64,000 nt of DNA from a virus: IMG/VR virus record IMGVR_UViG_3300037484_000731, positions 1 to 64,000 of that record; one strand, written 5' to 3'. Position numbers and translations under genes: made by a program. The first letter of the stretch is position 1. Each line of letters opens with the position of its first letter. The notes beneath the pieces are model-generated. The model worked only from the letters and a program-made list of their open reading frames with translations, was not told where the DNA came from and made no database searches. Shown one piece after another: positions 4,140-24,771 of this stretch.

Positions 4140-4158
4140 TTTAATTTCTCCTATTTAA

Positions 4159-7225: not shown

Positions 7226-7946
7226 GATTATATCTCCACCATTCACGCTCAAGCATTGCATATTGTTCCTCTCGAACATTGGTCTTCTTCTGCCACGGCT
7301 TCTCGCCCACATAATGTAAAATCCGCATGGTTTGCAGCACATGCTTGAATTTGTTCGTATAGAGCATTCTCTTTTCTACATTAAAGACCTTGTCGAGGTA
7401 CATCATACGATTTCTGAAGTAATGATTGATTACCGTCTGATCCGGCATCTTATGTCCAGACCTCGCAATCCTGAGCATCTCAACATAAACCTGTTCATTA
7501 AGGAATTGCTGATTGACAACAAACACCCCAGAATTTATATCACGTCTCATCATATCATGTAACGGATCATAACCCTTGACTGCTGCAAATCCCGCAGTCG
7601 TTGCAAAAAGCTGCTTAATATCTCCTAATATGAGAGTATCCGAATCAATAAATACGAGCCGTTCATATCCCTTCATATTGAATATATCAAGCTTGTAGTA
7701 AGTACATCTTAATTTTGGGGCTGTCTTCTCAAAATCAGTCCCCGCATATCTTTTCTTATCAATTGGCTGCCATGTGATGTCTTTATATATTTGAGTCAGT
7801 TTTCCCTTTGTCTCCGGCAGCACCCCGTCATCAAGTATCACAACCGGAAGATCAAACCAAGGATTATTCTTGAGTAATGACCTTATCATTGCTTTAAAGC
7901 CAATTACAAACTCTTCGTTCAGCATCGTTACAAGTGCCGTTTTCAT
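7218..7946 (-). CDS. family GT8 retaining glycosyltransferase
   Basis: DxD motif LVFIDSDTLIL and C-terminal HYVGEKPW (GT8 HYxGxxKPW signature). Confidence 0.7.
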   Translation of the reverse strand: MKTALVTMLNEEFVIGFKAMIRSLLKNNPWFDLPVVILDDGVLPETKGKLTQIYKDITWQPIDKKRYAGTDFEKTAPKLRCTYYKLDIFNMKGYERLVFIDSDTLILGDIKQLFATTAGFAAVKGYDPLHDMMRRDINSGVFVVNQQFLNEQVYVEMLRIARSGHKMPDQTVINHYFRNRMMYLDKVFNVEKRMLYTNKFKHVLQTMRILHYVGEKPWQKKTNVREEQYAMLEREWWRYNHE

Positions 7947-8593
7947 TTTTTTTGCTCCTCTAAATGTTCAAAATCTTTGATGGTATCAACATCAACCATC
8001 TCACCTATTGGATAGAAAACTGTTTTCTTATTCCATAGATTTTTATTTAGTTTTTTTATTTCACCGGCATATGCAATAAAGATAGCATGACTTGCCTTGA
8101 ACATCCGTGGGTAATCCTGTCTTCTGTAAAGATCGTGTTTTATAATTTGTCTCCCAGTACAATCCTTCATACTATCAAAGAACCATCTATACGGATGGAT
8201 TTCATCATTTGTCTGTTCCTCTCTGCAGAGAAGTGACTTCCCTTTCACTCTATCGAAGAATTTATGTGCTGCAATGATTTGCTTCCATGTTCTGGTCGGA
8301 TAAGTAAGATAGAGCATTGTGATTTTATCAGTATCTGGTATATTGTAATGATTAATTACATCCAAAAGAACTGATTTAGTATGCGCCGTATCTGTACAAA
8401 GCTCTGCTCTCCTTATGTGAATATGAAATCCTTTGGTCAAAGCAACATGACAGATCGTCATATCATCCGTCGTCACAATTACTCGACTTACCAGTGACGA
8501 CGGAATCATATTAGCCGTATAAGAAAAAAGTTTTCTGTTCTTAAGCGGTAAACCTTTACTACCCTGACGAGCCGGTATTATTATCCAATTCAT
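7943..8593 (-). CDS. acylneuraminate (nonulosonate) cytidylyltransferase, NeuA/CTP_transf_3 family
   Basis: N-terminus NWIIIPARQGSKGLPLKN matches the CMP-sugar synthetase signature (AIIPARggSKgipgKN). Confidence 0.7.
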   Translation of the reverse strand: MNWIIIPARQGSKGLPLKNRKLFSYTANMIPSSLVSRVIVTTDDMTICHVALTKGFHIHIRRAELCTDTAHTKSVLLDVINHYNIPDTDKITMLYLTYPTRTWKQIIAAHKFFDRVKGKSLLCREEQTNDEIHPYRWFFDSMKDCTGRQIIKHDLYRRQDYPRMFKASHAIFIAYAGEIKKLNKNLWNKKTVFYPIGEMVDVDTIKDFEHLEEQKK

Positions 8594-9024
8594 ATGAGTC
8601 CCTCTTTCTTGAAGAGTTCCTCGATGTTGACGATCGCCCAGTTCACATCAAACATATCAATATGAATATGAGCACCAAAGCTAAATCCAACATCGGCATA
8701 GAAACCAAGCTGGTCTCCTTCCAGTACTTTCTGTCCTTTATAGACCATATTCTCCCTGAGATGACAGTACCTCACGTGGTAAAGTCCATTCTCAAGCCGA
8801 TGATCTATAATCACCACATTACCGAGAGAATGCTTACGATCAGTCCACCTCAACGACTCCTGATAGTTATCCATGTCATACGACACGTTCCCCTCTGCAA
8901 TCGCAAAAATGCTATCACTCTCTCTACTGATTAAATCCAATCCTCCATGGAACTCCTCTTTTCCTTTAAGGATTCGTTTCCCAAAGTGGCTGGTTATTAC
9001 CGCATTGTCAACTGGCAGCCTCAT
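8590..9024 (-). CDS. M23/LytM-family metallopeptidase
   Basis: HFGKR...FHGGLDL (HxxxD) and GAHIHIDMF (HxH). Confidence 0.6.
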   Translation of the reverse strand: MRLPVDNAVITSHFGKRILKGKEEFHGGLDLISRESDSIFAIAEGNVSYDMDNYQESLRWTDRKHSLGNVVIIDHRLENGLYHVRYCHLRENMVYKGQKVLEGDQLGFYADVGFSFGAHIHIDMFDVNWAIVNIEELFKKEGLI

Positions 9025-9844
9025 GTAACACCTCCTCTATTTTTTGTACCCTAAAAAAGGGTATTACAGTATTAGGATTCAGATTAATGATCCGATCCTT
9101 ATAAAAATCAAAATGCTTGAACATCTTGATATTAGTCGCTGCTCGTTCACCTCGGTATCCCTTATCATTGCCATATCTCACTTTACCATCTGAATCATAG
9201 AAGTGAAGATCGACAGCATTTTTATTTAGGTCATATCCGAGTAAATAGATTGGGTTAGCATCCATCGCTATAGCCAGACTGATTGCTGCCATACCAGTTA
9301 GTCTCGCTCCCCAGATTCCCCTATTAAATTTGGCCTGTACTCGGTCATTGTTTACATAAAAGGGGATCGCATTTGGATTATCTTTGTGATACTGCGTCCT
9401 GAAGGAACAAAAAATCATACCTTTATACGATTGAAAAAACTTTCTTGCTTCATTATCATTCTTATCGAGAAAATTTGCATCGAGGAATATGCAAGCGTCG
9501 GCTTTCGGATAATAGATCACCGAGTGATTGATTGCGATAGTAAAATCATTATCCAGACGTGAAAAATCAAACCCTCTCAGACTTGATCCCCCGCCGATAA
9601 TGAAACACCGCTTTCCTTTAAGCATTCCATCTATGTTGTGCTTGTCACGTGTGAGACCACTGAATTTGTCAAATAGTCTCTGGGTATCTTCATCTGGGAT
9701 ATAATCACCTGATTCAATCAGTTCTCTGCACATATTAAGGGGAGCTATAACCCAGTCCCCCTTCTTTATCTTCTGAATACGATCAGGGTAGACCACATCT
9801 TTAATCAAAGCTTTACCCGTGTATTGTACATTACCTACTATCAC
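9008..9844 (-). CDS. DUF115/Maf-like putative nonulosonate/glycan transferase
   Basis: GKRCFIIGGGSSLRGFDFSRL...FTIAINHS matches the DUF115 core. Confidence 0.5.
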   Translation of the reverse strand: MIVGNVQYTGKALIKDVVYPDRIQKIKKGDWVIAPLNMCRELIESGDYIPDEDTQRLFDKFSGLTRDKHNIDGMLKGKRCFIIGGGSSLRGFDFSRLDNDFTIAINHSVIYYPKADACIFLDANFLDKNDNEARKFFQSYKGMIFCSFRTQYHKDNPNAIPFYVNNDRVQAKFNRGIWGARLTGMAAISLAIAMDANPIYLLGYDLNKNAVDLHFYDSDGKVRYGNDKGYRGERAATNIKMFKHFDFYKDRIINLNPNTVIPFFRVQKIEEVLHEAAS

Positions 9845-11446: not shown

Positions 11447-12397
11447 TTAGTCTATGACGTTCTGCATTAAATACCAAGTTTTTAACTCGGCCTGTAGAAT
11501 ATCATAATCCCATTCAGCTAAAATCTTCATGCCGTCTGGGTCTGTCTGATTCTCGGTGTATATCTTTAGCGGATCATACTCCATTGTCAGCACGCCGAAC
11601 ATCTCGTCAACACCTGGGTTTGCCGGAACGTAACCTATCAGGACGTCCTTACCCCAAGTATTTCCTACTGATGCGGTTAAACCCTTGTTGTAATTACCTA
11701 CACGGCCATTGGAAACAACAACGTTGAGTCCCTTAATCACTGGCGGGAGACCAACGAGTCTCTGCACTTGACCTTGGAAATCAGCCTGCATTAATTCCAT
11801 ACCGTACTGGTACTTCAACATTTCTCTTACCCAGCTCATTTTGGCAAGGTAAAGGGCTGCTTGGAAAGGAATTATGATCGTATTGGCTATCGCACCGCAA
11901 CCATCATATATTGCTTTAACAGCGTTGAGGATGCTGGTTTCGGGATCAGGGTTGGAATCATCCCATTGAGCATTTGTAATGCTCTCAACATCTTCATACT
12001 GTGTAACGAGTGTCGGGTCTCTCAATACTGCAGCTACCCTTAACTCGTGTTTTAATTTTAATCTGTGAGTCAGCTTATTGGTTTCCCTCTGCTGAAGTTT
12101 GACAGGCTGTTTTGCATTTTGAGCTTCTTTATTTGTAATAACGGAACTCAACGCACGTCTCCTTGTTCTGTAAGAATAAGGAGTTCCAACAGCAAAGTCA
12201 ACTTTATTGGAAGGAACACTTTCGGCGTCATCATTCATCTGCATGATCGCATCATCAGCGTCAACAAACACCTTGTCGCTGAAGTTCTCAACCGGCACTC
12301 TGGGGCAAACTTTGTCTGCAATCAGATTACCAGTGGGATAGCTTAATGCCAGATTAGTTAGATATTGGTCGTATCTTACAATACCCTTAGTACTCAT
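11447..12397 (-). CDS. major capsid protein (candidate)
   Basis: 316 aa; sits after the scaffold-like and decoration-like genes and before the connector-like genes; followed by a stem-loop. No motif-level proof. Confidence 0.5.
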   Translation of the reverse strand: MSTKGIVRYDQYLTNLALSYPTGNLIADKVCPRVPVENFSDKVFVDADDAIMQMNDDAESVPSNKVDFAVGTPYSYRTRRRALSSVITNKEAQNAKQPVKLQQRETNKLTHRLKLKHELRVAAVLRDPTLVTQYEDVESITNAQWDDSNPDPETSILNAVKAIYDGCGAIANTIIIPFQAALYLAKMSWVREMLKYQYGMELMQADFQGQVQRLVGLPPVIKGLNVVVSNGRVGNYNKGLTASVGNTWGKDVLIGYVPANPGVDEMFGVLTMEYDPLKIYTENQTDPDGMKILAEWDYDILQAELKTWYLMQNVID

Positions 12398-12422
12398 ACT
12401 CTATCCTCCTATAGTCTTGGCA

Positions 12423-12842
12423 TTAAGTGGCGTAAGTGCCAATGTAATGCTTGCAAATTTCTACTGGAATGACTTGCCCAGCAACCCAATTCTGAGTAGC
12501 CACACCCAATATCCAAGCCCCAGCTTGCGAAGTATGTTTTGCACCCACACCCGCAGCACCTGCTGTGACTCTATCACCTCTTGATCCCGAACCAGTCATT
12601 TCAACATAAACTATACCGGAATACTTCATTTCGATCGGGTCATGTTCTTCGTAAGTAGCTTTTCCGTTTTCGGAAGCGTCACCACTTACACCCTCGAAGA
12701 AGTAGTTCTGGTTAGTAGCATGAATGACCTCGTCAGGATCAGTACCTGCTTTGAGGATTCTGTACGGACTTACAGCAGCACCCGCTTTCGCTGGAGCAAC
12801 TTTTACATCACGTTCCTCAGTTCTACCTGCATTAAAAGCCAT
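12423..12842 (-). CDS. small Gly/Ala-rich head protein (decoration-like)
   Basis: 139 aa immediately upstream of the capsid gene. Confidence 0.3.
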   Translation of the reverse strand: MAFNAGRTEERDVKVAPAKAGAAVSPYRILKAGTDPDEVIHATNQNYFFEGVSGDASENGKATYEEHDPIEMKYSGIVYVEMTGSGSRGDRVTAGAAGVGAKHTSQAGAWILGVATQNWVAGQVIPVEICKHYIGTYAT

Positions 12843-12853
12843 AATCTTCCTCC

Positions 12854-15091
12854 TTATGACCTGATCTCAATGCCCGCCTGAGTCAAAGCAGCATGTTGTG
12901 TCATGCCCTGCGCTACAAGCTCTCTTGTCCTGTCGGCGATCTTTTTAGTTTCGTCATCGGACTGAGCAGATAGCGAAGTCCTTGTCTGTTCGGTCATCTT
13001 GATTTTGTTAGGATAGTTCTTGAACAAGTCTGTAATGAAAGAAGAGATCGGTTTCTTGATCTCAATTTCCTTGTCATCGACTTTTTCAGAGAACATCACG
13101 ACTTGATCTCCCTGTTCGGACATCAAGACTGGCTTGAACAACTTGATGACATAGGGCGGAACTCCATCGAGTCCAGCCTCTTTACAAATTGCATCAGCCG
13201 TTGATTTCTTAGATTCAAGCCTTGTGTCTTTAAAGCTCTCACTCAGCTTGGCCACAGCCTTGTCCTTCTCTACAAGTTGCAACCTAACAATGTTAAGTTG
13301 ATCTTCGTATTTCTGGACTGCTGTACCCACTGCGTTATCCACAATGGATTGTACATCTGAAAGAGCAATCATATCACCGTCAGCTCTCTTGGAAACTATA
13401 GGAGTTTCTTCTTTCTTCTTCCCGATTGATTTGATCATCTCAGAGAATTTTGTCAGAAGACCCTCATTGTTCTTTTCAAGCTTTTGCTCAATGATCTGCT
13501 CAACATTTATGGTTTTATCATTATCGCCCATAAACTTTCCTCCGTCTTCTAATGATAAATTCCCCCTATAGCCAAGTCCCTGACTCATCGGCACGTCTAC
13601 CACGTGCTTCATAGAAGGAATGTTGCTCAGAGCTACTGCTCTGATTATATTCTTTCCTGTCTCCCGCCAGTTTCTAACAAGCTCCGGTGAAAGACTGGTG
13701 AATAGCCTACCGCCAAATACCAAATCCTTGAGTTTGGATGGAATCTGTTTGATGTCAGCCACAACCCTACGCCCCTTTCTCCTGAAGTTGGAGAGTAGAC
13801 CCAAATTTGGTAATTCTTCCCAAATGTCAACGTCTGCCATCTTGTACAGCTCTCTTAATATGAGCTGCTGATCTGAATGGCTAAGCTTAACATTTGGCTT
13901 GACCAATCCTTTATTAATTACTTCATTAGTCCATTTTGCGTAGTCCTCTAAGTCCTGCTCCGAGAACTGTAGTCCATAAGAGTTAGGATAATTGTTTAAT
14001 ACTTCAACCTCTTTTATCTCTGTGTAATCGCCAGAGAAGAGATCACTTATTAACTCTGACATCTTCATATCCTTATTCCCCTTATCTTCTTTTTTCCCAG
14101 TAAGAGGCTCATCAAATAACTCGTTCATCATCTCACTGGTCATATCTTCAAATTCGTCGCTATCAGTCATCTTTATTTCGTCATCCTTCACGAGCTGCCA
14201 GTCTCCCTGAGCGACTTTCTTATATTTCTTCCCATCCTTACGAGTTGAAATGTGTCCGATTGGATACCCCTTCACTGCTTTTTCGCTCTTTTCCTGCCCG
14301 ATCTCCTCAAGGTAGATTGCACTTACATGCTTAGCATGAGAAACAATATCATTATCAAAGTAATCATCTTCTTTCTTTACTATTCTATATCTCACGTCTC
14401 TGGAAACAACAACTTCTTTTTCTTTGGGAAAACGTGAAAAACCCTGAATATCCACAGCCTGAGTGTTCTTCTCTATAATAATCTTTAAGTTGTATCCATC
14501 AGGCTCATATTCTCCATTCTTCTTAGAAAAAGAAGACATTGCACTAAGCTGAAATTCCTCCCCAACTATGGCCTTAGCATACAAGCCATTTTTATCCTCA
14601 ACTCGTCTGCTAATCTCTCCTTTGTATTTGGGAGCAGTATCAATATATTCCTTCATTGTATGATATACATTACCAATTCTCGTACCTTCATATGTACTAA
14701 TATCAAATCCTTTGTCAATCCCTCTAACTTGCTTCACTAAATCAGAATCACGAGTCCACTCATCTATATCCTTGAACTGCCTTTCATCTACTTTAACAGT
14801 ATAATCACTCTCACTATCACCGCCACGAACTAAGACCTCATATGTAGAACCCATATTTATACCAAGAGGAGTAGCAATATATTCTTTATCTCCTTGGGCA
14901 AGCGGATTGTCAGCCTGTAATTCATCAAATTTATATCTTTCAGAGGATTGCAGTCCTCCCCCGCCCTTGGGAGCAAATTTCCCATTATCCCCTCTTGGAT
15001 GTTCTTCCTCTTCCCAATCAGAAAATTTCTTCGGATTAAGTTCCTCGGCAAAAATCTGATTAAAGAGTTCCTGTAAACTAATTTCTACCAT
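12854..15091 (-). CDS. large acidic head-morphogenesis protein (scaffold-like C-terminal half)
   Basis: 745 aa, Glu/Lys-rich with coiled-coil-like C-terminal 250 aa; position between portal and capsid. Confidence 0.35.
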   Translation of the reverse strand: MVEISLQELFNQIFAEELNPKKFSDWEEEEHPRGDNGKFAPKGGGGLQSSERYKFDELQADNPLAQGDKEYIATPLGINMGSTYEVLVRGGDSESDYTVKVDERQFKDIDEWTRDSDLVKQVRGIDKGFDISTYEGTRIGNVYHTMKEYIDTAPKYKGEISRRVEDKNGLYAKAIVGEEFQLSAMSSFSKKNGEYEPDGYNLKIIIEKNTQAVDIQGFSRFPKEKEVVVSRDVRYRIVKKEDDYFDNDIVSHAKHVSAIYLEEIGQEKSEKAVKGYPIGHISTRKDGKKYKKVAQGDWQLVKDDEIKMTDSDEFEDMTSEMMNELFDEPLTGKKEDKGNKDMKMSELISDLFSGDYTEIKEVEVLNNYPNSYGLQFSEQDLEDYAKWTNEVINKGLVKPNVKLSHSDQQLILRELYKMADVDIWEELPNLGLLSNFRRKGRRVVADIKQIPSKLKDLVFGGRLFTSLSPELVRNWRETGKNIIRAVALSNIPSMKHVVDVPMSQGLGYRGNLSLEDGGKFMGDNDKTINVEQIIEQKLEKNNEGLLTKFSEMIKSIGKKKEETPIVSKRADGDMIALSDVQSIVDNAVGTAVQKYEDQLNIVRLQLVEKDKAVAKLSESFKDTRLESKKSTADAICKEAGLDGVPPYVIKLFKPVLMSEQGDQVVMFSEKVDDKEIEIKKPISSFITDLFKNYPNKIKMTEQTRTSLSAQSDDETKKIADRTRELVAQGMTQHAALTQAGIEIRS

Positions 15092-15470
15092 TATTTTTCC
15101 TATTTAAATAATAAATGGCTTTCTTTAATATCTTTATATCATCTTTTAAAAATCCAATCCCACTATTACATAATTGACAAAGTAATCCTCTAATTCTTCC
15201 ATTTTTATGGTCATGATCAGTTATTAAAAATTCTTCCTGTTTTCCACAAATTGCACATTTACCATGCTGTTGCTGATATAATTTTAAATATTCATCCCAT
15301 GATATATTATATTTCCACCTTAAATTCATTTTTCTATTAAAAATAGGATCTTCTTTAATCCTTCTACGATATGTAGCCTTTTCATTAAATTTCTTACGGC
15401 ATTGAATACTACAATAGATTTGAGTATTATTTTTTTCTTTAAATTCTTTATTACAATTTTTACATATCAT
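15078..15470 (-). CDS. endonuclease-VII-type HNH nuclease
   Basis: CAICGKQEEFLITDHDHKNGRIRGLLCQLCNSGIGFL (Endonuclease_7 signature); N-terminal CNKEF...C..C zinc ribbon. Confidence 0.7.
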   Translation of the reverse strand: MICKNCNKEFKEKNNTQIYCSIQCRKKFNEKATYRRRIKEDPIFNRKMNLRWKYNISWDEYLKLYQQQHGKCAICGKQEEFLITDHDHKNGRIRGLLCQLCNSGIGFLKDDIKILKKAIYYLNRKNNGRN

Positions 15471-15473
15471 AAA

Positions 15474-15812
15474 TTACTTCTTAACTTTATACGGAAGTTT
15501 CTTTCCTTTAGGAGTTTTCTCCTCAAATTCCTTTGCAAGCTCAGGTTCATTAATATGTAAGAAAGCTCTCTGGGCTTGACTTTTCATGGCCATCTTCTGA
15601 ACATCATCTTCCTTACAATCACTCATGCACTGACCTTTCTTATGATCATCATTAAATTGATTTACCATTTTGTTATGGTCTTCCCTATCAGCTTGGAATC
15701 GCTGATTTCTCATGTCGTGGGGCGACATATTAATCTTTTCTTCCTTTTCGGGTTTCTTAGGCTTCCCAATCTTAGCAAATCCCTGTTGTCTTGTTTCACC
15801 TGATGTGCTCAT
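15474..15812 (-). CDS. hypothetical highly charged protein
   Basis: 112 aa, K/E/D-rich; good RBS. Confidence 0.4.
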   Translation of the reverse strand: MSTSGETRQQGFAKIGKPKKPEKEEKINMSPHDMRNQRFQADREDHNKMVNQFNDDHKKGQCMSDCKEDDVQKMAMKSQAQRAFLHINEPELAKEFEEKTPKGKKLPYKVKK

Positions 15813-15857
15813 ATTGTTTCTCCTATTCTTACTAAATAAATAAATATCGATTTATTC

Positions 15858-16418
15858 TCAAATAAGTATTGCTACTGCTACAACTGTAGTCCATCCATCC
15901 TGCACCTCGGCAGACTTGGATATACTCATCGATTTAAAATTGTTGCTGCCCTTAATAGTGGACAGCATAATCTTGGCTATTTCTTCGGCTTCCTTGCCCG
16001 TTTCCTTTTCATTTTGACCGAAGCTATGATGTTCAGAGATGTAACCATAACCATTTCTATTATAAGCCGGTACGGAAATCTCTGCTCCATTCATAAGTCT
16101 ACCAGTGACATTCTCCTTTTTCGCATGAAAGGCCACCCCTATAGCCGAAGAGATAAGCCTATTCTTTTCATTACTTTCACATCTCGACAGGACACAATGA
16201 ACAATTGAACCTGTTGGAATCTGATCAAACTCCAATTTATCAAAATTCGGTATGACATTCGGCGGTAAAATACTGGATACCTGTACCAGATTAAACCCCG
16301 CAATCCCAGCATCCCTAAGAGCCATCTCAAATGATACGAGCTGTTTCTTTGCGCTGCCAACACCACAGGTTAATACGACTTTCTTCGGTTGATATATCAT
16401 GTTAAGTTGATCCCCCAA
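15858..16418 (-). CDS. pyruvoyl-dependent arginine decarboxylase (PdaD/AaxB family) homolog
   Basis: LRDAGIAGFNLVQVSSILPP aligns with archaeal PdaD LLNAGIGNVNLIRISSIMPP, including the Ser-Ser self-cleavage site; about 180 aa. True start probably MIYQPKK (16400, ATGA overlap). Confidence 0.7.
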   Translation of the reverse strand: MGDQLNMIYQPKKVVLTCGVGSAKKQLVSFEMALRDAGIAGFNLVQVSSILPPNVIPNFDKLEFDQIPTGSIVHCVLSRCESNEKNRLISSAIGVAFHAKKENVTGRLMNGAEISVPAYNRNGYGYISEHHSFGQNEKETGKEAEEIAKIMLSTIKGSNNFKSMSISKSAEVQDGWTTVVAVAILI

Positions 16419-17677
16419 TCCTTTAGTCTATTTATCTCCTTCTGGGCTTCCTCGATAACATCGGGGAACATACCCAGATCATAACTTTTTACTTGTTCAA
16501 CTATATCCTTAAGTTTGTCAACTGTCTCCTCAAGTGTATTGCCAAGAGCAACAACAGAACCAATCTCAGGAACATGATTACCCTGAGGTATAACATAATA
16601 ATTGTTGTTGATCATCGTAAGATCACGGAGTTTAACGTTATCCCGTATACTTTCAGGAAACTGTATTGCTTGCCAATTATCATCCGCAAACCTTGAATGG
16701 ATGAGCAGCTCCACACCAAATTTATAGTCTGTCTCAAAATCAATACACCTACCCTCTGCTCCAAACCAAAGTATGTCAGGTAAGTTCTTAAACATATCAA
16801 TGTAAATCTCACTCGGCGGGCTACCCGCTCTTGTACAAGGGTCTATGCAATATGCTGTCTTGTCTTTCACGATCCGGAGTTCTGTGCTGAAGAAATTCCT
16901 GTAGTGATACCTACTGAGTGTATCTGCAATGACATCATTAAAGCCTCTGATCTCCTCCGGAAATCGATTATAGTCCTGTACGATAGCAATATAACCTTTA
17001 TCCTTAATTTCAACGCCATATATACCCTTAGTGGGAAACTGGCCATCAATCGTATAACCATCATACCCTGTCTCCACCGCATCTCTTATGTTCTCCTCTA
17101 CAATAAATTTCTTGCTATATTTCATTGCTCCGAGGCTATGTTCAAGTTGATCGAGTTTAGGTTCTATAAGCTTGTAATTCTCTGCATAGAAGGTCTCAGT
17201 ATCTCCCCGTGTGACATTGATCTTGACAAATTGGTCTGCATGCTGCTTGAGATATTTCCTCAAAGATTCCATCCCGATCACAACTTCATATTTACCAACC
17301 GGTAATCCAAGTGATTTGAGATGTTCCTTGGATTTGTCACGATAAATCTCCAGTTCCTCTCCCTTTCTGCTGCCCCAGACCCTCTTCCCCAATTCTTCGA
17401 GATGCACCTGTATACCCCCACAGTAGACATCCGGAAAGACGAACAAATCCACATCATGAATTATATCAAAGAAATCATATATTTTCTGTATCCCCGCAAG
17501 CCCGCTTCCGATAAGTAGTTCATTTGAAGTGGGAAAGGAGTTCTGCCATGGGTTGTAATAGTAGACCTTTCCAAAGTACTTAGCCAGAGTTACAGCCATC
17601 TCAACAAATAAACCATTATCATAAATACAAACTGATTTCGTGTTATAATTCTGGATCATCATCATCCTCCTCGTCAC
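16397..17677 (-). CDS. hypothetical 426-aa protein paired with PdaD homolog
   Basis: Track start is a GTG. The likely start is the third Met at 17659 (AGGAGG RBS). No confident motif; vague resemblance to ATP-grasp-type ligases only. Confidence 0.45.
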   Translation of the reverse strand: MTRRMMMIQNYNTKSVCIYDNGLFVEMAVTLAKYFGKVYYYNPWQNSFPTSNELLIGSGLAGIQKIYDFFDIIHDVDLFVFPDVYCGGIQVHLEELGKRVWGSRKGEELEIYRDKSKEHLKSLGLPVGKYEVVIGMESLRKYLKQHADQFVKINVTRGDTETFYAENYKLIEPKLDQLEHSLGAMKYSKKFIVEENIRDAVETGYDGYTIDGQFPTKGIYGVEIKDKGYIAIVQDYNRFPEEIRGFNDVIADTLSRYHYRNFFSTELRIVKDKTAYCIDPCTRAGSPPSEIYIDMFKNLPDILWFGAEGRCIDFETDYKFGVELLIHSRFADDNWQAIQFPESIRDNVKLRDLTMINNNYYVIPQGNHVPEIGSVVALGNTLEETVDKLKDIVEQVKSYDLGMFPDVIEEAQKEINRLKDWGINLT

Positions 17678-17773
17678 CTTCTAAGTCTTCATTTTCTATA
17701 AAAAAATTACCCATGGCATCCTCGTCCTCATCTCTTTCATCCACATATCCGAGTAATTCCATATCTGGCATCA
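17642..17773 (-). CDS. small highly acidic peptide (43 aa, MMPDMELLGYVDERDEDEDAMGNFFIENEDLEGDEEDDDDPEL)
   Basis: Hand-translated; AAGGAA RBS 6 nt upstream; overlaps the start of the next gene. Below the ORF-track length cut-off. Confidence 0.25.
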
Positions 17774-17785
17774 TATCTTATTCCT

Positions 17786-19372
17786 TTATACCAAATATTC
17801 AATTGTTATTACTCCTCGGTTATAGGAAGTAACATCAAACTCGGTAGAATCAAAATACCCCGAAGTAGTTCTTACAATGTTAATATTGGTATTATCTATA
17901 AAATAACCACCGTAATAAGAACTGCTTGATGATCCAGACCCAAAAATAGAAATACTATACGTATTAGCATCATCAAAAATTAAAATATCTACAGAAAGTA
18001 TTTTTGATCTGGTGAGACCATGTGCAATCGCTACAGCCGTACTACTATCCATATTCCAATCACCAATATTTATTATCTTTGTTTTCTTTAGTTGTCCGGT
18101 AATTGTTTGGGACACATTTTCATCGATTGTTGTACCGTCTGGCTTATAATTATTTATAAATATAGTATTATCTGTATGTGAATTATAATTATGGTTTATT
18201 GTATTTGCATACCCGTTATAAATAAAATTATTTGAAAAACAATTTCTTCCTCCTCCATCAAAATAGTAAGCATCTAAATCTAAAACACATCCACTTACAT
18301 TTATTCCAGTAGAAGTATTAAAATAAATTGAACCTTCAAACATATTACAACCCACAATATTATAACCAATAGTTATCATTTGACACCAAACTGGATAGGT
18401 ATTGTGATTAAGAAGACATCCGACTAAATTACCATGTCCATTATTTGCAATGGTGTTTCCATATAAAAGTACACCGTAATAACAATCATTTATTTTACAA
18501 TTAGAAACAGTGTTGTTTCCAGACTCAATTGTAAGTCCTTCTCTACAACCATATATATCAAGATTATTTAATCTTATATATTCCGCATAATCAGCATCAA
18601 GAAAAACACCTTCATAACAATTATATATTTCACAATTCATTATAGATAAATGTGTTAGTCTATCTCTTGCAGGATCATAAGTATTGATTCCTTTAAGATC
18701 AAATCCTGAAATTATAACATTATCAATTTTAGTTATTTTTTGTGAAGCAACAGTGATACCATTTCTATTCCCTGCAGAAGTCACAGCCTTAAATGAAGTG
18801 GCCACCCCTCCGTACAGTCGTAAATTTGAATATCTGACATTTACAGCAGGAGCAGTCCCATCAAATAATGAAGTTGATGTTTCTCCAGTTTTTAAAGTTA
18901 TTTGAGAAGAATAACCATCTCCAAAAATAACTTGGCCATCAATAGGAACTAATTTTTTTGATATATAATTTCCAGAAGGAAAATAAACAGATAAATGTGC
19001 ATTTAGTGCGTTTTGAATTGCAGTAGTATCATCAGTAGAACCATCTCCTTTTGCACCATAATTCTTTACATTACCAGCTAATCTGGAAGACAACATTAAA
19101 TTTGGAAGAACATTAACAGCATCTGAAACTTCTTCTGCTGTAACATAACTCCCCGTAACAGCTCCATCAAGTGCTCTTGCAATATCTGCTGCAATTACAA
19201 CCCCGTCATCATCAGGATCATATTCTGCCTTATACATGTCACCACCACCGCCAGTTCCACCCATATTATCATAAAGATATTGACAATTTTCAATGAGCTT
19301 ATTAAGGTAAGTATATACCATCCACTTACCCTTAACAATCAGATTAATAGGCGATATGGTATTCCAAGCCAT
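17786..19372 (-). CDS. right-handed beta-helix (pectate-lyase-3 / tailspike-depolymerase-like) protein
   Basis: NVKNYGAKGDGSTDDTTAIQNALNA is the canonical Pectate_lyase_3 N-terminal motif; repetitive N/G/Y/I-rich beta-helix-like body. Confidence 0.7.
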   Translation of the reverse strand: MAWNTISPINLIVKGKWMVYTYLNKLIENCQYLYDNMGGTGGGGDMYKAEYDPDDDGVVIAADIARALDGAVTGSYVTAEEVSDAVNVLPNLMLSSRLAGNVKNYGAKGDGSTDDTTAIQNALNAHLSVYFPSGNYISKKLVPIDGQVIFGDGYSSQITLKTGETSTSLFDGTAPAVNVRYSNLRLYGGVATSFKAVTSAGNRNGITVASQKITKIDNVIISGFDLKGINTYDPARDRLTHLSIMNCEIYNCYEGVFLDADYAEYIRLNNLDIYGCREGLTIESGNNTVSNCKINDCYYGVLLYGNTIANNGHGNLVGCLLNHNTYPVWCQMITIGYNIVGCNMFEGSIYFNTSTGINVSGCVLDLDAYYFDGGGRNCFSNNFIYNGYANTINHNYNSHTDNTIFINNYKPDGTTIDENVSQTITGQLKKTKIINIGDWNMDSSTAVAIAHGLTRSKILSVDILIFDDANTYSISIFGSGSSSSSYYGGYFIDNTNINIVRTTSGYFDSTEFDVTSYNRGVITIEYLV

Positions 19373-19382
19373 GATATTCCCC

Positions 19383-19802
19383 CTAAAATTTCAACCAGCC
19401 GAGCTTATGCATTCCCCAGATTCCACCTACCACTGCAGCAGCTCCGAAGGTAAAGCCCAGTCCTATTTTCCAATTCTGTGATTCAACTGTTATTGGCAAC
19501 CATGCTTCCTGAGAAAAATCTCTCTGAAATAAATTACCCTTAATCCCCACATGTAAAGTATCACCCTTCTGATCTAAGGTCTTCCAGTCAATTTTTACTG
19601 GGTCATGATCATAATGCCAGAGAAAGCCCGTCGCCTGTTCAAAAGTGATGTCCTTTGGCCTCTCTACGGGCTTGGAAACAACCGGAGTAACAACTGGCTG
19701 TACAATGTCCTTGTCCATATAATCATAAACTATATATCCCGTCAAAGCTGCAGCCAGTGTATGGGAAAAGATCAATATAATTATAAGAGTCTTGTTTTTC
19801 AT
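19383..19802 (-). CDS. membrane protein (N-terminal signal/TM plus C-terminal TM)
   Basis: MKNKTLIIILIFSHTLAAALTG... and C-terminal GLGFTFGAAAVVGGIWGM hydrophobic segments. Confidence 0.45.
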   Translation of the reverse strand: MKNKTLIIILIFSHTLAAALTGYIVYDYMDKDIVQPVVTPVVSKPVERPKDITFEQATGFLWHYDHDPVKIDWKTLDQKGDTLHVGIKGNLFQRDFSQEAWLPITVESQNWKIGLGFTFGAAAVVGGIWGMHKLGWLKF

Positions 19803-22246
19803 TTGAGTATTGAAAACCTCCTGATCCCATTTTGATTAACAAAGCCCATGACGGGTAACTGTTCTACTTTGTGTACGTGTGTATGCTCAGAGAAAAGTTT
19901 AAATTTCAGATTATCTCCCAGCAGCGCAGCAACCTCGTCCATGGTAATTGGTTTTCCTTTCGATCCAAGCGTAAGATCAGTACCTATAACATCAGGATCG
20001 TCGATGTCATCCTTTGTCACTGGCAACCAAGCGCACCGGCACATATAATGTAGAGGCGGATCATACTTTGATCGAGTTGCTGAGTCTACATCAACCACTA
20101 TTCCGTCCAGCCTTTCACATAGAGGACATGTCACCTTATCCATAATAGCAGAGAACATTACCCTTGTGACCTCTTTCCCTGCACCGAGTAGTCCGAGTGC
20201 TATGGCCTTGGCATTTTCCCTCAGATAATCCTCAAAAGCCTTGCCCAGAGTAAAGCCTATTTCAGTCTCAGATATATTCTGTAATTTGGTGTCGGAAATG
20301 AACCCTGTGATTGCAGACTTGAGTCTGTCAACTATCTCGTTTAAGGAAAGCCTCGATCCGAGATCAGATGAGAGCTGATACTTGATCATGGACTCATAGT
20401 CAGACGTCAATTTGTCTGCAGTCACGTTAATACGAAACTGGATGAACTGATTGGATGTATCAGTTGAAGCCATTCTCGTCTTACGCTCTACTCCCGCTTT
20501 CACGTTGGAATAGACATTACTGTATATATCTTGCAAAAACTCCTTAAAAAGCCTCTTGATCGTGAAATCCCGTACCTCTATGTCCTTCACAACCTTCACA
20601 AACTTAGCATCAGGAGAATAGCTCGCCTTGATATAATCAATTATTCTATTCTCCTGTGTCACGAGTTCTTCTCTAAGGTCTGCCTGAAATTGAGTACTCC
20701 GAGAGTCAAGGAATGATTCAATAGATGAGAAGTTATATCGCTGCTCAAGCTTATTGAAAGCACGCCACCTTCCCTCAGATAATTTCTCTTCCTTTTCTTT
20801 TTTTTCCTTTTTTCCCTTGTCAGCTCCTTTCTGATCTTGTTTGTTATTTCTATCTACAACAGCATCCTCTTTTTTGCCGTTAGTCTTGGGAGTTTTAGCC
20901 TCTTTCCCATTCTGCTCTTTCATCTGATCTGGCGGGATCGGCTCTCCATTCTCATCAATGGGAACACCGTTTTCATCAACCTGTTCTTCTTCAGGTACTT
21001 CCGGCTCTTCTTCCTCAACCTCTTCAAATGGAATAGATGTCTTATCAATAAGATATTGTGTCGGGACTTTGAGCTTGCCACTGCTAACGAGTGTCTCTAC
21101 CAGTTTATTAGTAATATCCTTACTCGTATCACTGAACTCACCCGATGCAACATGTACCTCAACATCCTCGCCAAAGTTCATCTTAACGAATGGCTGCACC
21201 AAATCCTCATCTATCTTAGTCACTATTGCATCGAGAAGCTGCTCTTTTCTGGAAACAAATATATCCTGATATGCTTCTACTGAAGCCCTCGCACCAACTT
21301 CTCCCTGTGTAAGTGCCTTTTCTGGAATAATGAATGCCCTGAGAATCGCCTCATCAATGTATCTTGCCCTCGTCACGAAAGGATCAGTCCTATCCTCTGC
21401 ATCAAGGTATTCTATGTCCCAGAGCAGATTACCTTTGTCATCTCTCTTTGATGGGATTGATACCACACGACCTTCTATTATCCCCGTCAAAAGTTCAAGT
21501 ATGACGTCCTGATTATCTTTTACTGTCTCCCCAACCTCTGTAGTACCGACTGGGTATAGACCCTTCAAAACACCAACACCTATTCTCTCCAGCCATCTCA
21601 TGTGCCACTGTCTATTAAGTAAAGCATCAAACCAGTAAGAATATGCAGGTTCAAGGGCTGATATCCCATAAAAATTCCCAGATTCCAGCATATGTGTGAA
21701 GAGCAGAGCTTTATGATCTGTATGTAAAATCTTCTGCTCAACTCCATACTGTTCAAATCCACTAAAATTCCCAGTTAATGGCTCTGTTAAAATACGTACT
21801 GTTTCAGGATCAAGACCCTTTGGCGGTCTGAGTAAAAGTCCCTCATATATCTTCTTTTCTTTTTCTCCTGTGTCCGGATCAACTTTGAAGTATGGCAGCT
21901 TCCCATATTCCCACAAGATTTCTGCCGGTTTCCATCCAAATTCAAGCTGTTCCAATGCTTCATTGATGAGCTTCACCCAGAATCGCTTGAATAGAGCTTC
22001 AGTAATAGTCTTCTCATCATTATCATCATCTCCCTCAAACACGGGCGGAACTGTCGGCAATCCGAGCTTTATAAAATTAAGCCCCAGCCAACACATGGGA
22101 TACATTCTCATTCTCTTGTACTGCGCCGGTATTCTTTCAGACGTATACGGCAGTATATTACTGAGGGTTCTATACAGACCAAGGTATGTCAACTCATTGA
22201 GCAATACCTCATTATTAACTTTTGTTATCTTATTTTTATCTGGCAT
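19799..22246 (-). CDS. portal protein fused to MuF-like minor head protein domain
   Basis: 815 aa directly downstream of TerL; acidic linker (EEVEEEEPEVPEEE); C-terminal TCPLCERLDG...HYMCRCAWLP resembles the Phage_Mu_F / SPP1 gp7 conserved HxxCRC region. Confidence 0.6.
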   Translation of the reverse strand: MPDKNKITKVNNEVLLNELTYLGLYRTLSNILPYTSERIPAQYKRMRMYPMCWLGLNFIKLGLPTVPPVFEGDDDNDEKTITEALFKRFWVKLINEALEQLEFGWKPAEILWEYGKLPYFKVDPDTGEKEKKIYEGLLLRPPKGLDPETVRILTEPLTGNFSGFEQYGVEQKILHTDHKALLFTHMLESGNFYGISALEPAYSYWFDALLNRQWHMRWLERIGVGVLKGLYPVGTTEVGETVKDNQDVILELLTGIIEGRVVSIPSKRDDKGNLLWDIEYLDAEDRTDPFVTRARYIDEAILRAFIIPEKALTQGEVGARASVEAYQDIFVSRKEQLLDAIVTKIDEDLVQPFVKMNFGEDVEVHVASGEFSDTSKDITNKLVETLVSSGKLKVPTQYLIDKTSIPFEEVEEEEPEVPEEEQVDENGVPIDENGEPIPPDQMKEQNGKEAKTPKTNGKKEDAVVDRNNKQDQKGADKGKKEKKEKEEKLSEGRWRAFNKLEQRYNFSSIESFLDSRSTQFQADLREELVTQENRIIDYIKASYSPDAKFVKVVKDIEVRDFTIKRLFKEFLQDIYSNVYSNVKAGVERKTRMASTDTSNQFIQFRINVTADKLTSDYESMIKYQLSSDLGSRLSLNEIVDRLKSAITGFISDTKLQNISETEIGFTLGKAFEDYLRENAKAIALGLLGAGKEVTRVMFSAIMDKVTCPLCERLDGIVVDVDSATRSKYDPPLHYMCRCAWLPVTKDDIDDPDVIGTDLTLGSKGKPITMDEVAALLGDNLKFKLFSEHTHVHKVEQLPVMGFVNQNGIRRFSILK

Positions 22247-22565: not shown

Positions 22566-22755
22566 CCTTCCTCTCTATAAACAATGGACTCTGAATTTGA
22601 GTCGGCTGCAATATCTCATTATAATAATCACTGTTAATGTTGAATGTATTCCGTTCATTAAATTCCTCTCTTTTGCCCTTGTTCCACTGATTTATTGGCC
22701 TAAAATATCCTACTACTCGACTAAATACCTCTACTGGAACTCTTCTTTCTGGCAT
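22525..22755 (-). CDS. hypothetical small protein
   Basis: Start overlaps the TerL stop. Confidence 0.3.
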   Translation of the reverse strand: MPERRVPVEVFSRVVGYFRPINQWNKGKREEFNERNTFNINSDYYNEILQPTQIQSPLFIERKDEVITQNDVLPER

Positions 22756-24155
22756 TATTTTACTCCCATTACTTGTGATTTGAATTGAGGTCTATTATGC
22801 TTGCTCGTATCCGGAGCTGGAGCATATAAATCCTGTCCCGTTAAAAAATTGATACCATGTACCAAAGCATCAAGTCTATTTGGCGATTTTTGACCTTGCT
22901 GCCATTCACAGAGTTCATCCTCAAGTAATCCAAATGTCCCCACATGATGTACTCTTCCCTGCTCATATAATCCCGACACCGGCTCTGCTCTAAGAGTTTT
23001 ACCTCTACTGGCCGTGATTACATGTACTGTATTATTCCTATCAACATTGCGGATAGTGGACTTGACCATCGCTCCGCCGAAGTTTTTCTCTGCAACGTAT
23101 GCATCACATTTAAACTTATTATATCCTGCCTGTGCCTCTCTTGCCCATCCATCGGGTGAAGCTTGCAACGAAAGGTCTTCAAATACGTAATAATGAGTCA
23201 TATCTCTATTTCTCATACCCTCAAGTGCGCGACCCTCTCCCACAACAATTATTCCATTTTCAGTGGCTTCCTTTCCTTCCTCAGGTTCTGTACCTGCAGG
23301 GTCTATTGAAACAACTATTCTATGACACGGAGCTGCAAGTGATATCCTGTAATCATCAAGCCATTTTCTTTTCCAAAGGGCATTGGGATTATCATCCAGT
23401 AGTTTCGCATAAAGTTCCTGCTTGCCAATCCTTGTACCCTCATATTTTCTGATGACTGTATGAATAAACGGAGCAGCGAGATTATCCATGTTTTCGTATG
23501 TATTCCCTGCCGTGACTACTGTTGCGGGATCATTAATTACTGACTTAAGAAATTTGGTTGGTTTTGGAGTAGTAGATACCATGCAGAGTGGATTCTCACC
23601 AAGACGGAGTCCAAGCATGATATTATCATATGTATCCTGAGGATATTTCCACTTAGCTAACTCATCCATCCATACAAGGTCTGACTGTGCACCACGTGAA
23701 GAATCAGGTTCTGTCCCATAATAGATATTGGCTACTGCTCCATTCGGCCAATAAAGAATCATTTTTGAAGGTTCATATGTCGGCATAAACCAAGGCGGGG
23801 AATGTTGAAGTATTCCGCTTTCTCCTTCAATCATTATCTTTCTTACATCAGTTGCATTCGCTCCAACAAGGGTAACATATCTATACCCATGATTCCTTAC
23901 TTTTTCGATGACCCATTCTGCACCTGTTCTTGTCTTACCAAAACCACGACCGGCCAGTACCAGCCAGATAAACTTATCTATCTGCTGCAATTCTACCGGT
24001 TCTAATTGATTTTTCCTCGCCCAGAAAGACCAATCATAATATAGCCCCATGAAATCCTCATCCGTAAGTTTCCGCAGCATCTTCATTCTCTCCACATATG
24101 GAAGAGCTATAAGAACCTGCGCCAGAGAAGCTGTATTTAGATTGAGCTTAGACAT
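22755..24155 (-). CDS. terL: terminase large subunit
   Basis: Walker A VLAGRGFGKTRTG; 466 aa; followed by a nuclease-like C-terminal half; upstream TerS. Confidence 0.85.
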   Translation of the reverse strand: MSKLNLNTASLAQVLIALPYVERMKMLRKLTDEDFMGLYYDWSFWARKNQLEPVELQQIDKFIWLVLAGRGFGKTRTGAEWVIEKVRNHGYRYVTLVGANATDVRKIMIEGESGILQHSPPWFMPTYEPSKMILYWPNGAVANIYYGTEPDSSRGAQSDLVWMDELAKWKYPQDTYDNIMLGLRLGENPLCMVSTTPKPTKFLKSVINDPATVVTAGNTYENMDNLAAPFIHTVIRKYEGTRIGKQELYAKLLDDNPNALWKRKWLDDYRISLAAPCHRIVVSIDPAGTEPEEGKEATENGIIVVGEGRALEGMRNRDMTHYYVFEDLSLQASPDGWAREAQAGYNKFKCDAYVAEKNFGGAMVKSTIRNVDRNNTVHVITASRGKTLRAEPVSGLYEQGRVHHVGTFGLLEDELCEWQQGQKSPNRLDALVHGINFLTGQDLYAPAPDTSKHNRPQFKSQVMGVK

Positions 24156-24771
24156 TATTATCTTTTTCCTGTTTTTGTTCCTCTTCCGTGAGTTTCATGA
24201 AACGATCAAGAATTTTTTGCTTTAAGGCATCTATATTATTAAACTCTATGGGCTTACCATTGATCCCAGACAACTCATGCCTCTTAGCCAAAGACAGGTG
24301 AAGACCAAGTATATCATGTGCTCGGTTCTTGTCCCATAATTTTAGTTTGATTTTCTGCTGTGTAGTTCCGTCCGGTAGTAAGTTAGACGTTATCTCTATT
24401 GCGGAGATAGGTTTGGTGTCTATGTCCGTTGAGTTAAGGATTCTGTCTTTAAGCTTAACATTCCCATCTCTATCATAATCCAAATACTCCCGAAGGTCTG
24501 AGAATGCCAGTGATTCTATTTCCTTCCTTGCCCTGAGGGTTAGCCCTGTCTTATCCCTTAATAATTCATCAGCCTTGGCCTCGATTTCCTTCCTAACATT
24601 AACCTTTCTTAATAATTTACTACAAGAGACTGCTGCTACATTGGCCTTTTTAACCTTGTATATCTTCTGATAGGCTCTTGTTCCATTAAAATCAATAAGG
24701 TATTCGAGGACGAATCGCTTCTCTAACTGGGTAAGGGGCTTCTCTTCTGTTTTTCCCTGATCCGTCGCCAT
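24148..24771 (-). CDS. terS: terminase small subunit
   Basis: LTQLEKRFVLEYLIDFNGTRAYQKIY resembles the Terminase_2 N-terminal HTH; overlaps terL by 8 nt. Confidence 0.6.
   Translation of the reverse strand: MATDQGKTEEKPLTQLEKRFVLEYLIDFNGTRAYQKIYKVKKANVAAVSCSKLLRKVNVRKEIEAKADELLRDKTGLTLRARKEIESLAFSDLREYLDYDRDGNVKLKDRILNSTDIDTKPISAIEITSNLLPDGTTQQKIKLKLWDKNRAHDILGLHLSLAKRHELSGINGKPIEFNNIDALKQKILDRFMKLTEEEQKQEKDNNV

Follow-up and report, generated by a model that had tools for sequence, protein, structure and literature searches.

A pyruvoyl-type arginine decarboxylase gene and its ATP-grasp ligase neighbour in the head gene block of an uncultivated phage

Introduction

The pyruvoyl-dependent arginine decarboxylases (PvlArgDC) include PdaD of Methanocaldococcus jannaschii (MJ0316; PDB 1mt1, 1n2m and 2qqd) and chlamydial AaxB, which is part of the AaxABC arginine-agmatine exchange system and operates with an arginine/agmatine antiporter and a porin. 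In this work we describe a pdaD-like gene in a 64,000-nucleotide stretch of DNA (the window) from IMGVR_UViG_3300037484_000731, an uncultivated phage. Compared with its M. jannaschii counterpart, the phage gene lies in a late operon, where it shares a four-base ATGA overlap with a gene for a predicted ATP-grasp ligase, and not among cellular polyamine genes. We propose that the two genes encode the halves of a cassette in which a pyruvoyl decarboxylase would supply an amine and the ligase would convert it into an amide.

Pairs of a decarboxylase and an ATP-grasp amine ligase are known from cellular organisms. In MfnA/MfnD (tyramine-glutamate ligase, methanofuran) and in Cj1436/Cj1438 of Campylobacter jejuni (capsule glucuronamide), an amino acid is decarboxylated and an ATP-grasp enzyme joins the amine to a carboxylate, much as we suggest for the phage locus. 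However, the decarboxylases of these pairs depend on pyridoxal phosphate (PLP), the pairs have no relation to the phage ligase beyond the superfamily, and their substrates are known.

Phages require polyamines to replicate and package their DNA. Viral polyamine genes were surveyed systematically in 2023, and the main text of that survey (PMC9992855) provides the closest phage systems for comparison. Phage homologues of SpeD have been experimentally shown to have repeatedly become arginine or ornithine decarboxylases (Li et al., PMC9992855). As is predicted for PdaD, these are phage-encoded, self-processing pyruvoyl enzymes that act on arginine or ornithine, but their fold is wholly different, which would make the two non-homologous isofunctional enzymes. 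In Achromobacter phage Motura, the homospermidine synthase gene hss is clustered with gss, which encodes a glutathionylspermidine-synthetase (GSS) homologue, and the cluster has been read as a maker of polyamine amides (PMC9992855). Motura thus also pairs a polyamine-forming enzyme with an ATP-dependent carboxylate-amine ligase in a phage. It differs in both enzymes, in the amine (homospermidine versus agmatine), in its location outside the head module and in the type of ligase, which is GSS-like in Motura and PurD-like here. The main text of the 2023 survey reports no PvlArgDC fold in any virus and no ATP-grasp partner (PMC9992855), and our literature searches returned no description of a phage cassette combining an ATP-grasp enzyme with a decarboxylase. 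What is new in the present locus is the setting and the partner of the enzyme, not the enzyme family itself.

Results

The open reading frame (ORF) list of the window contains a minus-strand ORF of 186 amino acids with a TTG start (15858..16418). The true start of pdaD is almost certainly the ATG at 16400, because the TTG sits in a GATTGGGGGATCAACTTAAC run and because the JGI gene product P0001 and all close homologues begin at the ATG. P0001 is 180 amino acids long, begins MIYQPKK and is 100% identical to the window PdaD. In a Pfam scan, this protein matched PF01862 (PvlArgDC) with an E value of 4.9e-45 and 153.7 bits against a cut-off of 22.7, over positions 2-161 of the 161-position profile. 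It also passed NCBIfam TIGR00286 (115.9 bits; cut-off 106.95), and scored 158.8 bits with the narrower NCBIfam model NF009064, which is under that model's cut-off of 207. Judged by these scores, the family match is far beyond chance. Among PDB sequences, phmmer matched PdaD only to the M. jannaschii PvlArgDC chains 1n2m and 2qqd, and aligned AGIAGFNLVQVSSILPP of PdaD with AGIGNVNLIRIS(S/A)IMPP of the archaeal enzyme. An earlier note on this stretch had proposed a PvlArgDC homologue and quoted the same alignment with archaeal PdaD; both the assignment and the alignment are upheld by these searches.

The same note had described the enzyme class as archaeal, chlamydial and giant-viral, which proves too narrow. 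We found 1563 homologues of the family, with Elusimicrobia, Deltaproteobacteria and Nitrospiraceae among them, so that the family is broadly bacterial as well as archaeal. The giant-virus part of the description lacks support, as the chlorovirus arginine decarboxylase is presented in the survey's main text as a PLP-dependent homologue of ornithine decarboxylase, not a PvlArgDC (PMC9992855).

The residues expected of a self-processing enzyme are present. Ser42-Ser43 of PdaD, the predicted serinolysis site, aligns with Ser52-Ser53 of M. jannaschii PvlArgDC; Asn37 corresponds to Asn47, the residue mutated in PDB 2qqd, and Glu123, in the motif GYGYISEHH, to Glu109. All four residues are invariant across family alignments of 24 and 56 sequences, which confirms that the Ser-Ser site is intact, as had been claimed. 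At the position of M. jannaschii Asp35 the phage enzyme has a glutamate (E25), as do most bacterial and archaeal members, and every residue that is invariant in the cellular arginine decarboxylases of the family is kept. Ser43 would become the pyruvoyl group, and cleavage would give a predicted beta chain of residues 1-42 (4.5 kDa) and a predicted alpha chain of residues 43-180 (15.1 kDa).

Overall, PdaD is about 25% identical to the M. jannaschii enzyme, with which it shares the Pfam family, the fold, the catalytic residues and the lack of a segment of about 20 residues that is present in the common 181-amino-acid long form of the family. What sets it apart is ENVTGRLMNGAEISVPAYNR, an insert of about 20 residues that is specific to its lineage and immediately precedes the catalytic Glu motif. 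This insert is modelled as a beta-hairpin and was found only in the window PdaD and, in a shorter version, in P0002; four of the six members of the phage clade described below are without it. An AlphaFold2 monomer model of PdaD had a mean predicted local distance difference test (pLDDT) score of 91.5. Foldseek matched the model in the PDB solely to M. jannaschii PvlArgDC (1n2m, 2qqd and 1mt1; E about 1e-14), with target-normalised template modelling (TM) scores of 0.81-0.87 and root-mean-square deviations of 2.2-3.1 Å. By every feature examined in sequence and model, the window gene is a genuine and apparently intact gene for a pyruvoyl-type arginine decarboxylase.

Directly upstream of pdaD is a gene for a protein of 426 amino acids when read from its GTG codon, although translation probably begins at one of the ATGs found at residues 5-7. 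The JGI gene call (P0121, 400 amino acids) starts about 26 residues too late, as the family keeps K14, D20 and G22 upstream of that point. The TGA stop of this gene overlaps the ATG of pdaD, and a GGGGGA run resembling a Shine-Dalgarno sequence lies within its 3' end (Table 1). From this arrangement, pdaD and the upstream gene are read as translationally coupled.

The 426-amino-acid protein has no Pfam or PHROG family. An AlphaFold2 model built from a 36-sequence alignment had a pLDDT of 93.8, and Foldseek placed glycinamide ribonucleotide (GAR) synthetases of the PurD type at the top of its PDB matches, over the full length of the protein (E 1e-21, TM 0.71). There were 545 matches to PDB structures at E<=0.001, and the 50 listed were all ATP-grasp enzymes, with biotin carboxylases, PurT, PurK and L-amino-acid ligases below PurD. 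In a search of the PDB with a sequence profile, PurD was likewise the sole family at significant E (2yw2, E 5e-8), and the profile aligned viDPCaRaGsPPsE of the ligase with vlEFNvRlGDPE of PurD. Charged positions that do not vary in 121 sequences include K152, R157, E194, E266, D279, R283 and N298; K152, E194, E266 and D279 supply the conserved lysine and the acidic ATP/Mg-binding residues of the three-domain ATP-grasp fold. In the case of PurD (PDB 2yw2, 1gso), the likeness covers the full four-domain ATP-grasp architecture with a TM of about 0.7. The differences are an identity of just 12-17%, the replacement of the Asn in the E-x-N motif and an essentially phage-restricted distribution. We read the protein as an active carboxylate-amine ligase that is PurD-like in fold only.

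The possibility that the ligase gene is a true purD gene or orthologue of purine synthesis was considered and rejected, as the protein scored 14.8 bits with TIGR00877 (purD) against a cut-off of 288.

More than 1100 homologues of the ligase were found at 50-59% identity, on phage-sized contigs, and the family is present in at least 182 IMG/VR contigs. In contrast, it occurs in 10 of 185,579 species genomes, in each instance on a contig of a metagenome-assembled genome. Among cultured phages, the family was seen just as two distant homologues from Aquificae viruses, and a fold search of the BFVD returned just distant ATP-grasp proteins (TM <=0.52). This distribution points to an uncharacterised family that is essentially restricted to phages.

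The pairing of ligase and pdaD genes recurs. About 20 IMG/VR contigs carry a PvlArgDC homologue, and short-form pdaD was found in six phage lineages. In a neighbour-joining tree built from 121 sequences, the six short-form proteins (the window PdaD, P0002-P0005 and P0008) group in a clade of their own, with identities of 46-67% and 51 invariant columns kept. Of these six lineages, five encode an ATP-grasp ligase homologue immediately upstream of pdaD: the window, L111/L112/L109 (P0124 followed by P0003), L108 (P0004), L110 (P0002) and ERZ1426851/L003/L004 (P0138 followed by P0008). The same four-base ATGA overlap was observed in all four lineages checked (the window, L108, L109 and L110). Gene pdaD is located just downstream of the portal gene in all three lineages with enough flanking sequence, including L111, in which the pair follows a portal of the PF04860 type. 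The gene was not found in cultured phages, with no tblastn match in 50,697 genomes (INPHARED) and no family in PHROGs. The earlier note did not count this enzyme class among the components of head operons in tailed phages; this holds for cultured phages and fails for metagenomic ones, given the six lineages. A metagenome scan with a profile of the phage clade gave, among the matches listed, the known relative and one unrelated contig. The closest cellular or short-form homologues (P0006, P0035 and P0052) are in ordinary archaeal or cellular contexts with no ligase, and no cellular origin of the cassette was found among them.

The ligase family also has a second type of decarboxylase partner. 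The pairing counts are drawn from short metagenomic contigs, with at most 80 loci per query. PvlArgDC was found within 6 kb of the ligase in none of 80 IMG/VR loci. Instead, a gene of about 120 codons resembling speD was directly upstream of the ligase gene in 57 of the 76 loci with upstream sequence, and within 2 kb in four more (61/76). Most of the SpeD-like proteins examined matched PF02675 (23 of 30; best E 4.7e-17). Against the PDB, the SpeD-like profile matched S-adenosylmethionine decarboxylase (AdoMetDC) proenzymes only (2iii, E 7e-5), with the Glu-Ser processing site and the active-site Cys aligned, and S67 and C87 are invariant in the family. On these matches, the SpeD-like gene is assigned to the pyruvoyl proenzymes of the AdoMetDC/SpeD class 1b fold. 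Neither SpeD-like ORFs nor ORFs of the 'family X' described below were found by hidden Markov model search in the window, in L111 or in the Thermocrinis virus, and tblastn found no match to the SpeD-like protein in cultured phages. The two types of decarboxylase are mutually exclusive beside one ligase family, and ligases linked to either type of partner are interleaved at 50-59% identity. Since SpeD homologues of phages have turned into arginine and ornithine decarboxylases (PMC9992855), and the SpeD-like ligase partners share that fold, it is a reasonable inference by analogy that both partners deliver the same amine.

Additional features were noted at the loci of the SpeD-like type. The SpeD-like proteins (L027-L106; e.g., L031:5652-6011 and L005:9652-10011) have the motif QPITESFIAxDxWPD...GAYLxICSC, in which the His after the processing Ser is replaced by Phe. 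A further family of about 115 amino acids ('family X'; e.g., L005:9312-9659, L028:929-1288 and L125:3333-3989) shows invariant H, E, FD, EPG, PY, H and E positions. In 14 of 80 loci its gene lies either ahead of the SpeD-like gene or immediately ahead of the ligase gene, and in L102 family X and the SpeD-like domain are fused. Neither Pfam nor the PDB gave a match to family X, which may form a third part of the cassette. In high-GC phages, small and very basic proteins (about 100-120 amino acids; L093:6289-6597, L059:5369-5686 and L075:5538-5900) adjoin the ligase and end in ...RGMISEKAM...GGDY, ...GRDY or ...GKQE. It is speculation, but conceivable, that these acidic C-termini are protein substrates of the ATP-grasp enzyme.

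With or without a partner, the ligase gene adjoins packaging and head genes under different types of portal: Mu-like in the window, PF04860 in L111, P22-like in 22 loci and SU10-like in L005 and L046. In Thermocrinis Great Boiling Spring virus, an Aquificae virus, it lies between the portal gene and those for the small and large terminase subunits (TerS/TerL) and the major capsid protein. This position beside the head and packaging genes argues for late expression and for a role tied to head assembly or DNA packaging.

Genomic setting and other features

The minus strand carries every gene of the window. GC content is uniform (0.35-0.41), and no tRNA genes were found. In coding-strand order, the region reads TerS, TerL, a 105-amino-acid ORF, portal, a 139-amino-acid protein, a 528-amino-acid protein, the ATP-grasp ligase, PdaD, a 112-amino-acid protein, HNH endonuclease VII, a 745-amino-acid protein, the cement/decoration protein and the major capsid protein. 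The placement between portal and scaffold genes given in the earlier note is thus accurate (Table 1). A scan of positions 14800-20000 for promoters and terminators gave no signal above chance. The closest relative of the window phage (L002/L007; JGI 3300033489) has the same head module, with a major capsid protein that is 85% identical. Its PdaD (P0005, 54% identical) is encoded at the syntenic position, and it is without the 528- and 426-amino-acid genes. A gene similar to that for the 528-amino-acid protein is located near TerS in L005. The highly charged 112-amino-acid protein gave no Pfam, NCBIfam or PHROG match, and its homologue is also downstream of pdaD in L002. The window contains two HNH/endonuclease VII genes, with PF02945 matches at E 5e-23 (the gene near pdaD) and 2e-22. 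One of them is inserted in the head module, two genes after pdaD, and this agrees with the view that the interval from portal to scaffold is a hotspot for mobile and accessory genes.

Table 1. Coordinates of pdaD, its ligase neighbour and further features of the window; aa, amino acids.
Feature	Position	Strand	Basis or remark
pdaD-like gene, PvlArgDC proenzyme, 180 aa	15858..16400	-	PF01862, TIGR00286, AlphaFold2, Foldseek
Predicted serinolysis site, Ser42-Ser43 codons	16272..16277	-	TCC AGT read at 16277-16272
Asn37 codon	16290..16292	-	AAT
Glu123 codon	16032..16034	-	GAA
Lineage-specific insert	16047..16118	-	pLDDT 66-73
PurD-like ATP-grasp carboxylate-amine ligase, 426 aa from GTG	16397..17677	-	directly upstream of pdaD
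ATGA overlap	16397..16400	-	ligase stop TGA 16399-16397 over pdaD start ATG 16400-16398; read from sequence
GGGGGA, Shine-Dalgarno-like run	16411..16416	-	10-15 nt upstream of ATG 16400; read from sequence
TerS	24148-24771	-
TerL	22755-24155	-
Portal, Mu-like, with C-terminal MuF domain; upstream border of insertion zone	19799..22246	-	PF06074 1.5e-23, PF04233 1.1e-7, phrog_113 1e-27
Pectate-lyase-fold protein, 528 aa, tailspike/depolymerase-like	17786-19372	-	between portal and ligase; absent from L002
Charged protein, 112 aa	15474..15812	-	directly downstream of pdaD; 39% identity over 62 aa to 113-aa protein of L002
HNH endonuclease VII	15078-15470	-	PF02945
Second HNH/endonuclease VII	36409-36852	-	PF02945
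Scaffold-like/cement/capsid block; downstream border	11447..15091	-	phrog_673 5.2e-12, phrog_1005 1.8e-32; 65-85% identity to syntenic L002 genes
745-aa protein, N-terminal ADP-ribosyltransferase domain and scaffold-like C-terminus	12854-15091	-	PF03496 E 8.9e-6, residues 116-241
Cement/decoration protein	12423-12842	-
Major capsid protein	11447-12397	-
Nonulosonic (sialic-like) acid gene set	905-9844	-
NeuB homologues	905-1774; 4159-5628 (with cupin domain)	-
Cytidylyltransferase	7943-8593	-
MptE/sialyltransferase-like protein	9008-9844	-	phrog_4603 E 1.5e-16
GT8 glycosyltransferase	7218-7946	-
Three methyltransferases	2141-2809; 3504-4139; 6683-7342	-
Adenylosuccinate-synthetase homologue, 346 aa	51628-52668	-	phrog_1211 E 2.6e-68; PF00709 E 4e-44
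DnaE-type Pol III alpha	42024-44984	-
Serine recombinase with helix-turn-helix domain	40542-41159	-
MT-A70 adenine methyltransferase	41156-41698	-
SPFH/band-7 protein	29953-30657	-
RecA	49367-50392	-
1890-aa ORF	58209-63881	-	no Pfam or PHROG match

The nonulosonic acid gene set is located in the structural region, and several of its genes are also present in the relative L002. The set may serve the glycosylation of the virion with an acidic sugar, which in principle could be a carboxylate target for the ligase. A link between cassette and nonulosonic acid genes as a general rule was rejected, as there was no NeuB within 6 kb of the ligase in 80 other loci. The adenylosuccinate-synthetase homologue has phage PurZ as its best match, which suggests from sequence that the phage may replace adenine with 2-aminoadenine (Z-genome). 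The usual companions DatZ (HD) and MazZ (MazG) were not found among the ORFs scanned, and the replicase is of the DnaE type, not a PolA-type DpoZ.

In the 745-amino-acid head protein, the ADP-ribosyltransferase domain precedes the scaffold-like C-terminus, and for this reason the protein is probably a packaged or ejected toxin-like enzyme. In L008, a long-form PvlArgDC gene lies between two genes with PARP catalytic domains (L008:7094-7912 and L008:9203-10453). Elsewhere in the window, the serine recombinase gene adjoins the MT-A70 gene; together with the SPFH/band-7 and RecA genes, they give a hint of DNA methylation and of a lifestyle that is temperate or plasmid-like. The window also holds an ORF of 1890 amino acids without a Pfam or PHROG match.

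Discussion

We favour, with a chance that we would put a little above even, the reading that PdaD provides the decarboxylase of a cassette made up of a pyruvoyl decarboxylase and an amide ligase, in which PvlArgDC fills the slot of a non-homologous SpeD-fold analogue and the product is an agmatine amide. In the proposed pathway, the PdaD proenzyme would cleave itself between Ser42 and Ser43, Ser43 would be converted into the pyruvoyl cofactor, and the mature enzyme would convert L-arginine into agmatine and CO2. Self-cleavage and arginine decarboxylation are highly probable on the strength of the conserved residues and the modelled fold. The ligase would then turn a carboxylate into an acyl-phosphate, which would be attacked by agmatine through its primary amine to give the amide. 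Provided that PdaD makes agmatine, its ligation to a carboxylate is moderately likely, as suggested by the coupling of the genes, the displacement of one decarboxylase by an analogue and the PurD-type chemistry. The cassette would be expressed with the late head and packaging genes, and its product could be either a small cationic conjugate or a macromolecule to which agmatine has been joined. Candidates for the carboxylate are an amino acid, which would give a di- or tri-cationic 'pseudo-polyamine' that could neutralise DNA, a carboxylate on a protein of the capsid interior, a sugar acid and a nucleotide. The product might accordingly act as a DNA counter-ion, in modification of the virion or in modification of the DNA.

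Two observations lead to this proposal. The recurrent pairing with a ligase favours agmatine as a substrate for ligation over a simple supply of polyamines. Furthermore, two unrelated decarboxylase folds that swap in one slot point to a shared product, an amine such as agmatine, as the substrate of the ligase. The earlier note had offered two ideas of function, polycations for packaging and agmatine for a modification reaction. Both are plausible, and the second gains support from the ligase pairing.

Several findings weigh against the cassette. The adjacency of the genes and their four-base overlap prove co-expression, not a shared pathway. Phage L002 keeps pdaD with no ATP-grasp gene in its available 15 kb and is the sole lineage of the six to do so. 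Long-form PvlArgDC is present in about 19 other IMG/VR contigs with no ligase and in unrelated contexts, such as PARP-domain genes, a PAPS-reductase with ParB, or an amidase with an exonuclease. Approximately 20% of the ligase loci have no recognisable decarboxylase nearby, which means that the ligase can presumably work without a phage-encoded partner, on a substrate made by the host. In the ligase family, the Asn of the usual Mg-binding E-x-N motif of ATP-grasp enzymes is replaced by Cys, Met or Thr. The 444-amino-acid product of the gene upstream of pdaD in L002 was also considered as a diverged ATP-grasp protein, and was rejected (hhalign probability 0.1%).

The strongest rival is a stand-alone auxiliary metabolic gene, which was the main idea of the earlier note. 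Here, agmatine would be converted into putrescine by a host agmatinase, or by agmatine iminohydrolase and N-carbamoylputrescine amidohydrolase (AIH/NCPAH), and would aid replication, translation and the neutralisation of DNA charge as the genome is packaged, with the ligase being unrelated. Arginine decarboxylase, ornithine decarboxylase and other polyamine enzymes of phages are established and have been interpreted in this manner (PMC9992855). The location of pdaD among the late head and packaging genes, at a stage that calls for counter-ions, agrees with such a supply, as do L002 and the long-form genes that lack a ligase. However, retention of the ligase directly upstream in five of six clade lineages, with the overlap in each of the four checked, is not what two independent genes would lead one to expect, and two unrelated activities would not readily account for the 61 of 76 other loci in which the ligase is paired with the second type of pyruvoyl decarboxylase. 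In addition, a Pfam scan of about 60 window ORFs, which did not include small ORFs or the approximately 6 kb of the contig beyond the window, detected no agmatinase, AIH, NCPAH, spermidine synthase or homospermidine synthase. We consider stand-alone supply unlikely, although far from negligible.

In a second alternative, the order of the steps is reversed. The ligase would first build a compound with a free alpha-amino acid end, for instance by acylating a side-chain amine. The pyruvoyl enzyme would then decarboxylate that compound, and free arginine would not be the substrate. The ligase gene does come first in the PvlArgDC-type cassette, but the decarboxylase gene comes first in the SpeD-type cassette, and gene order therefore carries no signal. 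Either of two features could alter the substrate pocket, namely the lineage-specific insert beside the catalytic Glu motif and the lack of about 20 residues relative to the long form. Yet the insert is absent from four of the six members of the phage clade, and the residues invariant in cellular arginine decarboxylases are all kept, including the Glu at the D35 position. A reversed order is improbable on this evidence.

Slightly less probable still is a function in host manipulation or counter-defence, through depletion of arginine, through agmatine as an effector or decoy (for instance, as an ADP-ribosyltransferase acceptor), or through control of pH as in AaxB. Agmatine is a classical in vitro acceptor for arginine-specific ADP-ribosyltransferases. 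An ADP-ribosyltransferase domain is encoded three genes downstream of pdaD, in the 745-amino-acid scaffold-like protein, and the PvlArgDC gene of L008 is flanked by two PARP-domain genes, but this association consists of two unrelated observations. AaxB belongs to the same family and works with an antiporter and a porin, whereas no transporter family, including an AaxABC-type arginine/agmatine antiporter, was matched by Pfam among window ORFs of at least 400 amino acids. Placement in a late operon is also ill-suited to an early takeover function. Finally, that PdaD is an inactive remnant or pseudo-enzyme carried passively, as its score under the NF009064 cut-off and the unusual insert with lower model confidence might suggest, is very improbable in view of the full-length profile match, the complete conservation of catalytic residues, the monophyletic and well-conserved phage clade and the confident fold.

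Returning to the cassette, in which PdaD would provide agmatine to the ligase, the finding may extend beyond the window. It is possible, if somewhat short of an even chance, that many uncultivated tailed phages carry a head-operon pathway in which a pyruvoyl decarboxylase of either fold and a phage-specific PurD-like ligase make a conjugate of agmatine or a related amine. The conjugate could be a new cationic amide, a 'pseudo-polyamine' packaged along with the DNA, or else agmatine could be attached to a virion protein, to a glycan or to a nucleotide. In the window phage, the nonulosonic acid glycan system and the possibly PurZ-modified genome are candidate targets.

The locus adds a third structural solution for arginine decarboxylation in phages, and exposes a widespread, phage-restricted ligase family that is habitually paired with a pyruvoyl decarboxylase beside portal and terminase genes. 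If the cassette operates as proposed, phages would make a new amine conjugate at the time of head assembly, which would bear on the counter-ions of the capsid, on the chemical modification of virions and on auxiliary metabolism.

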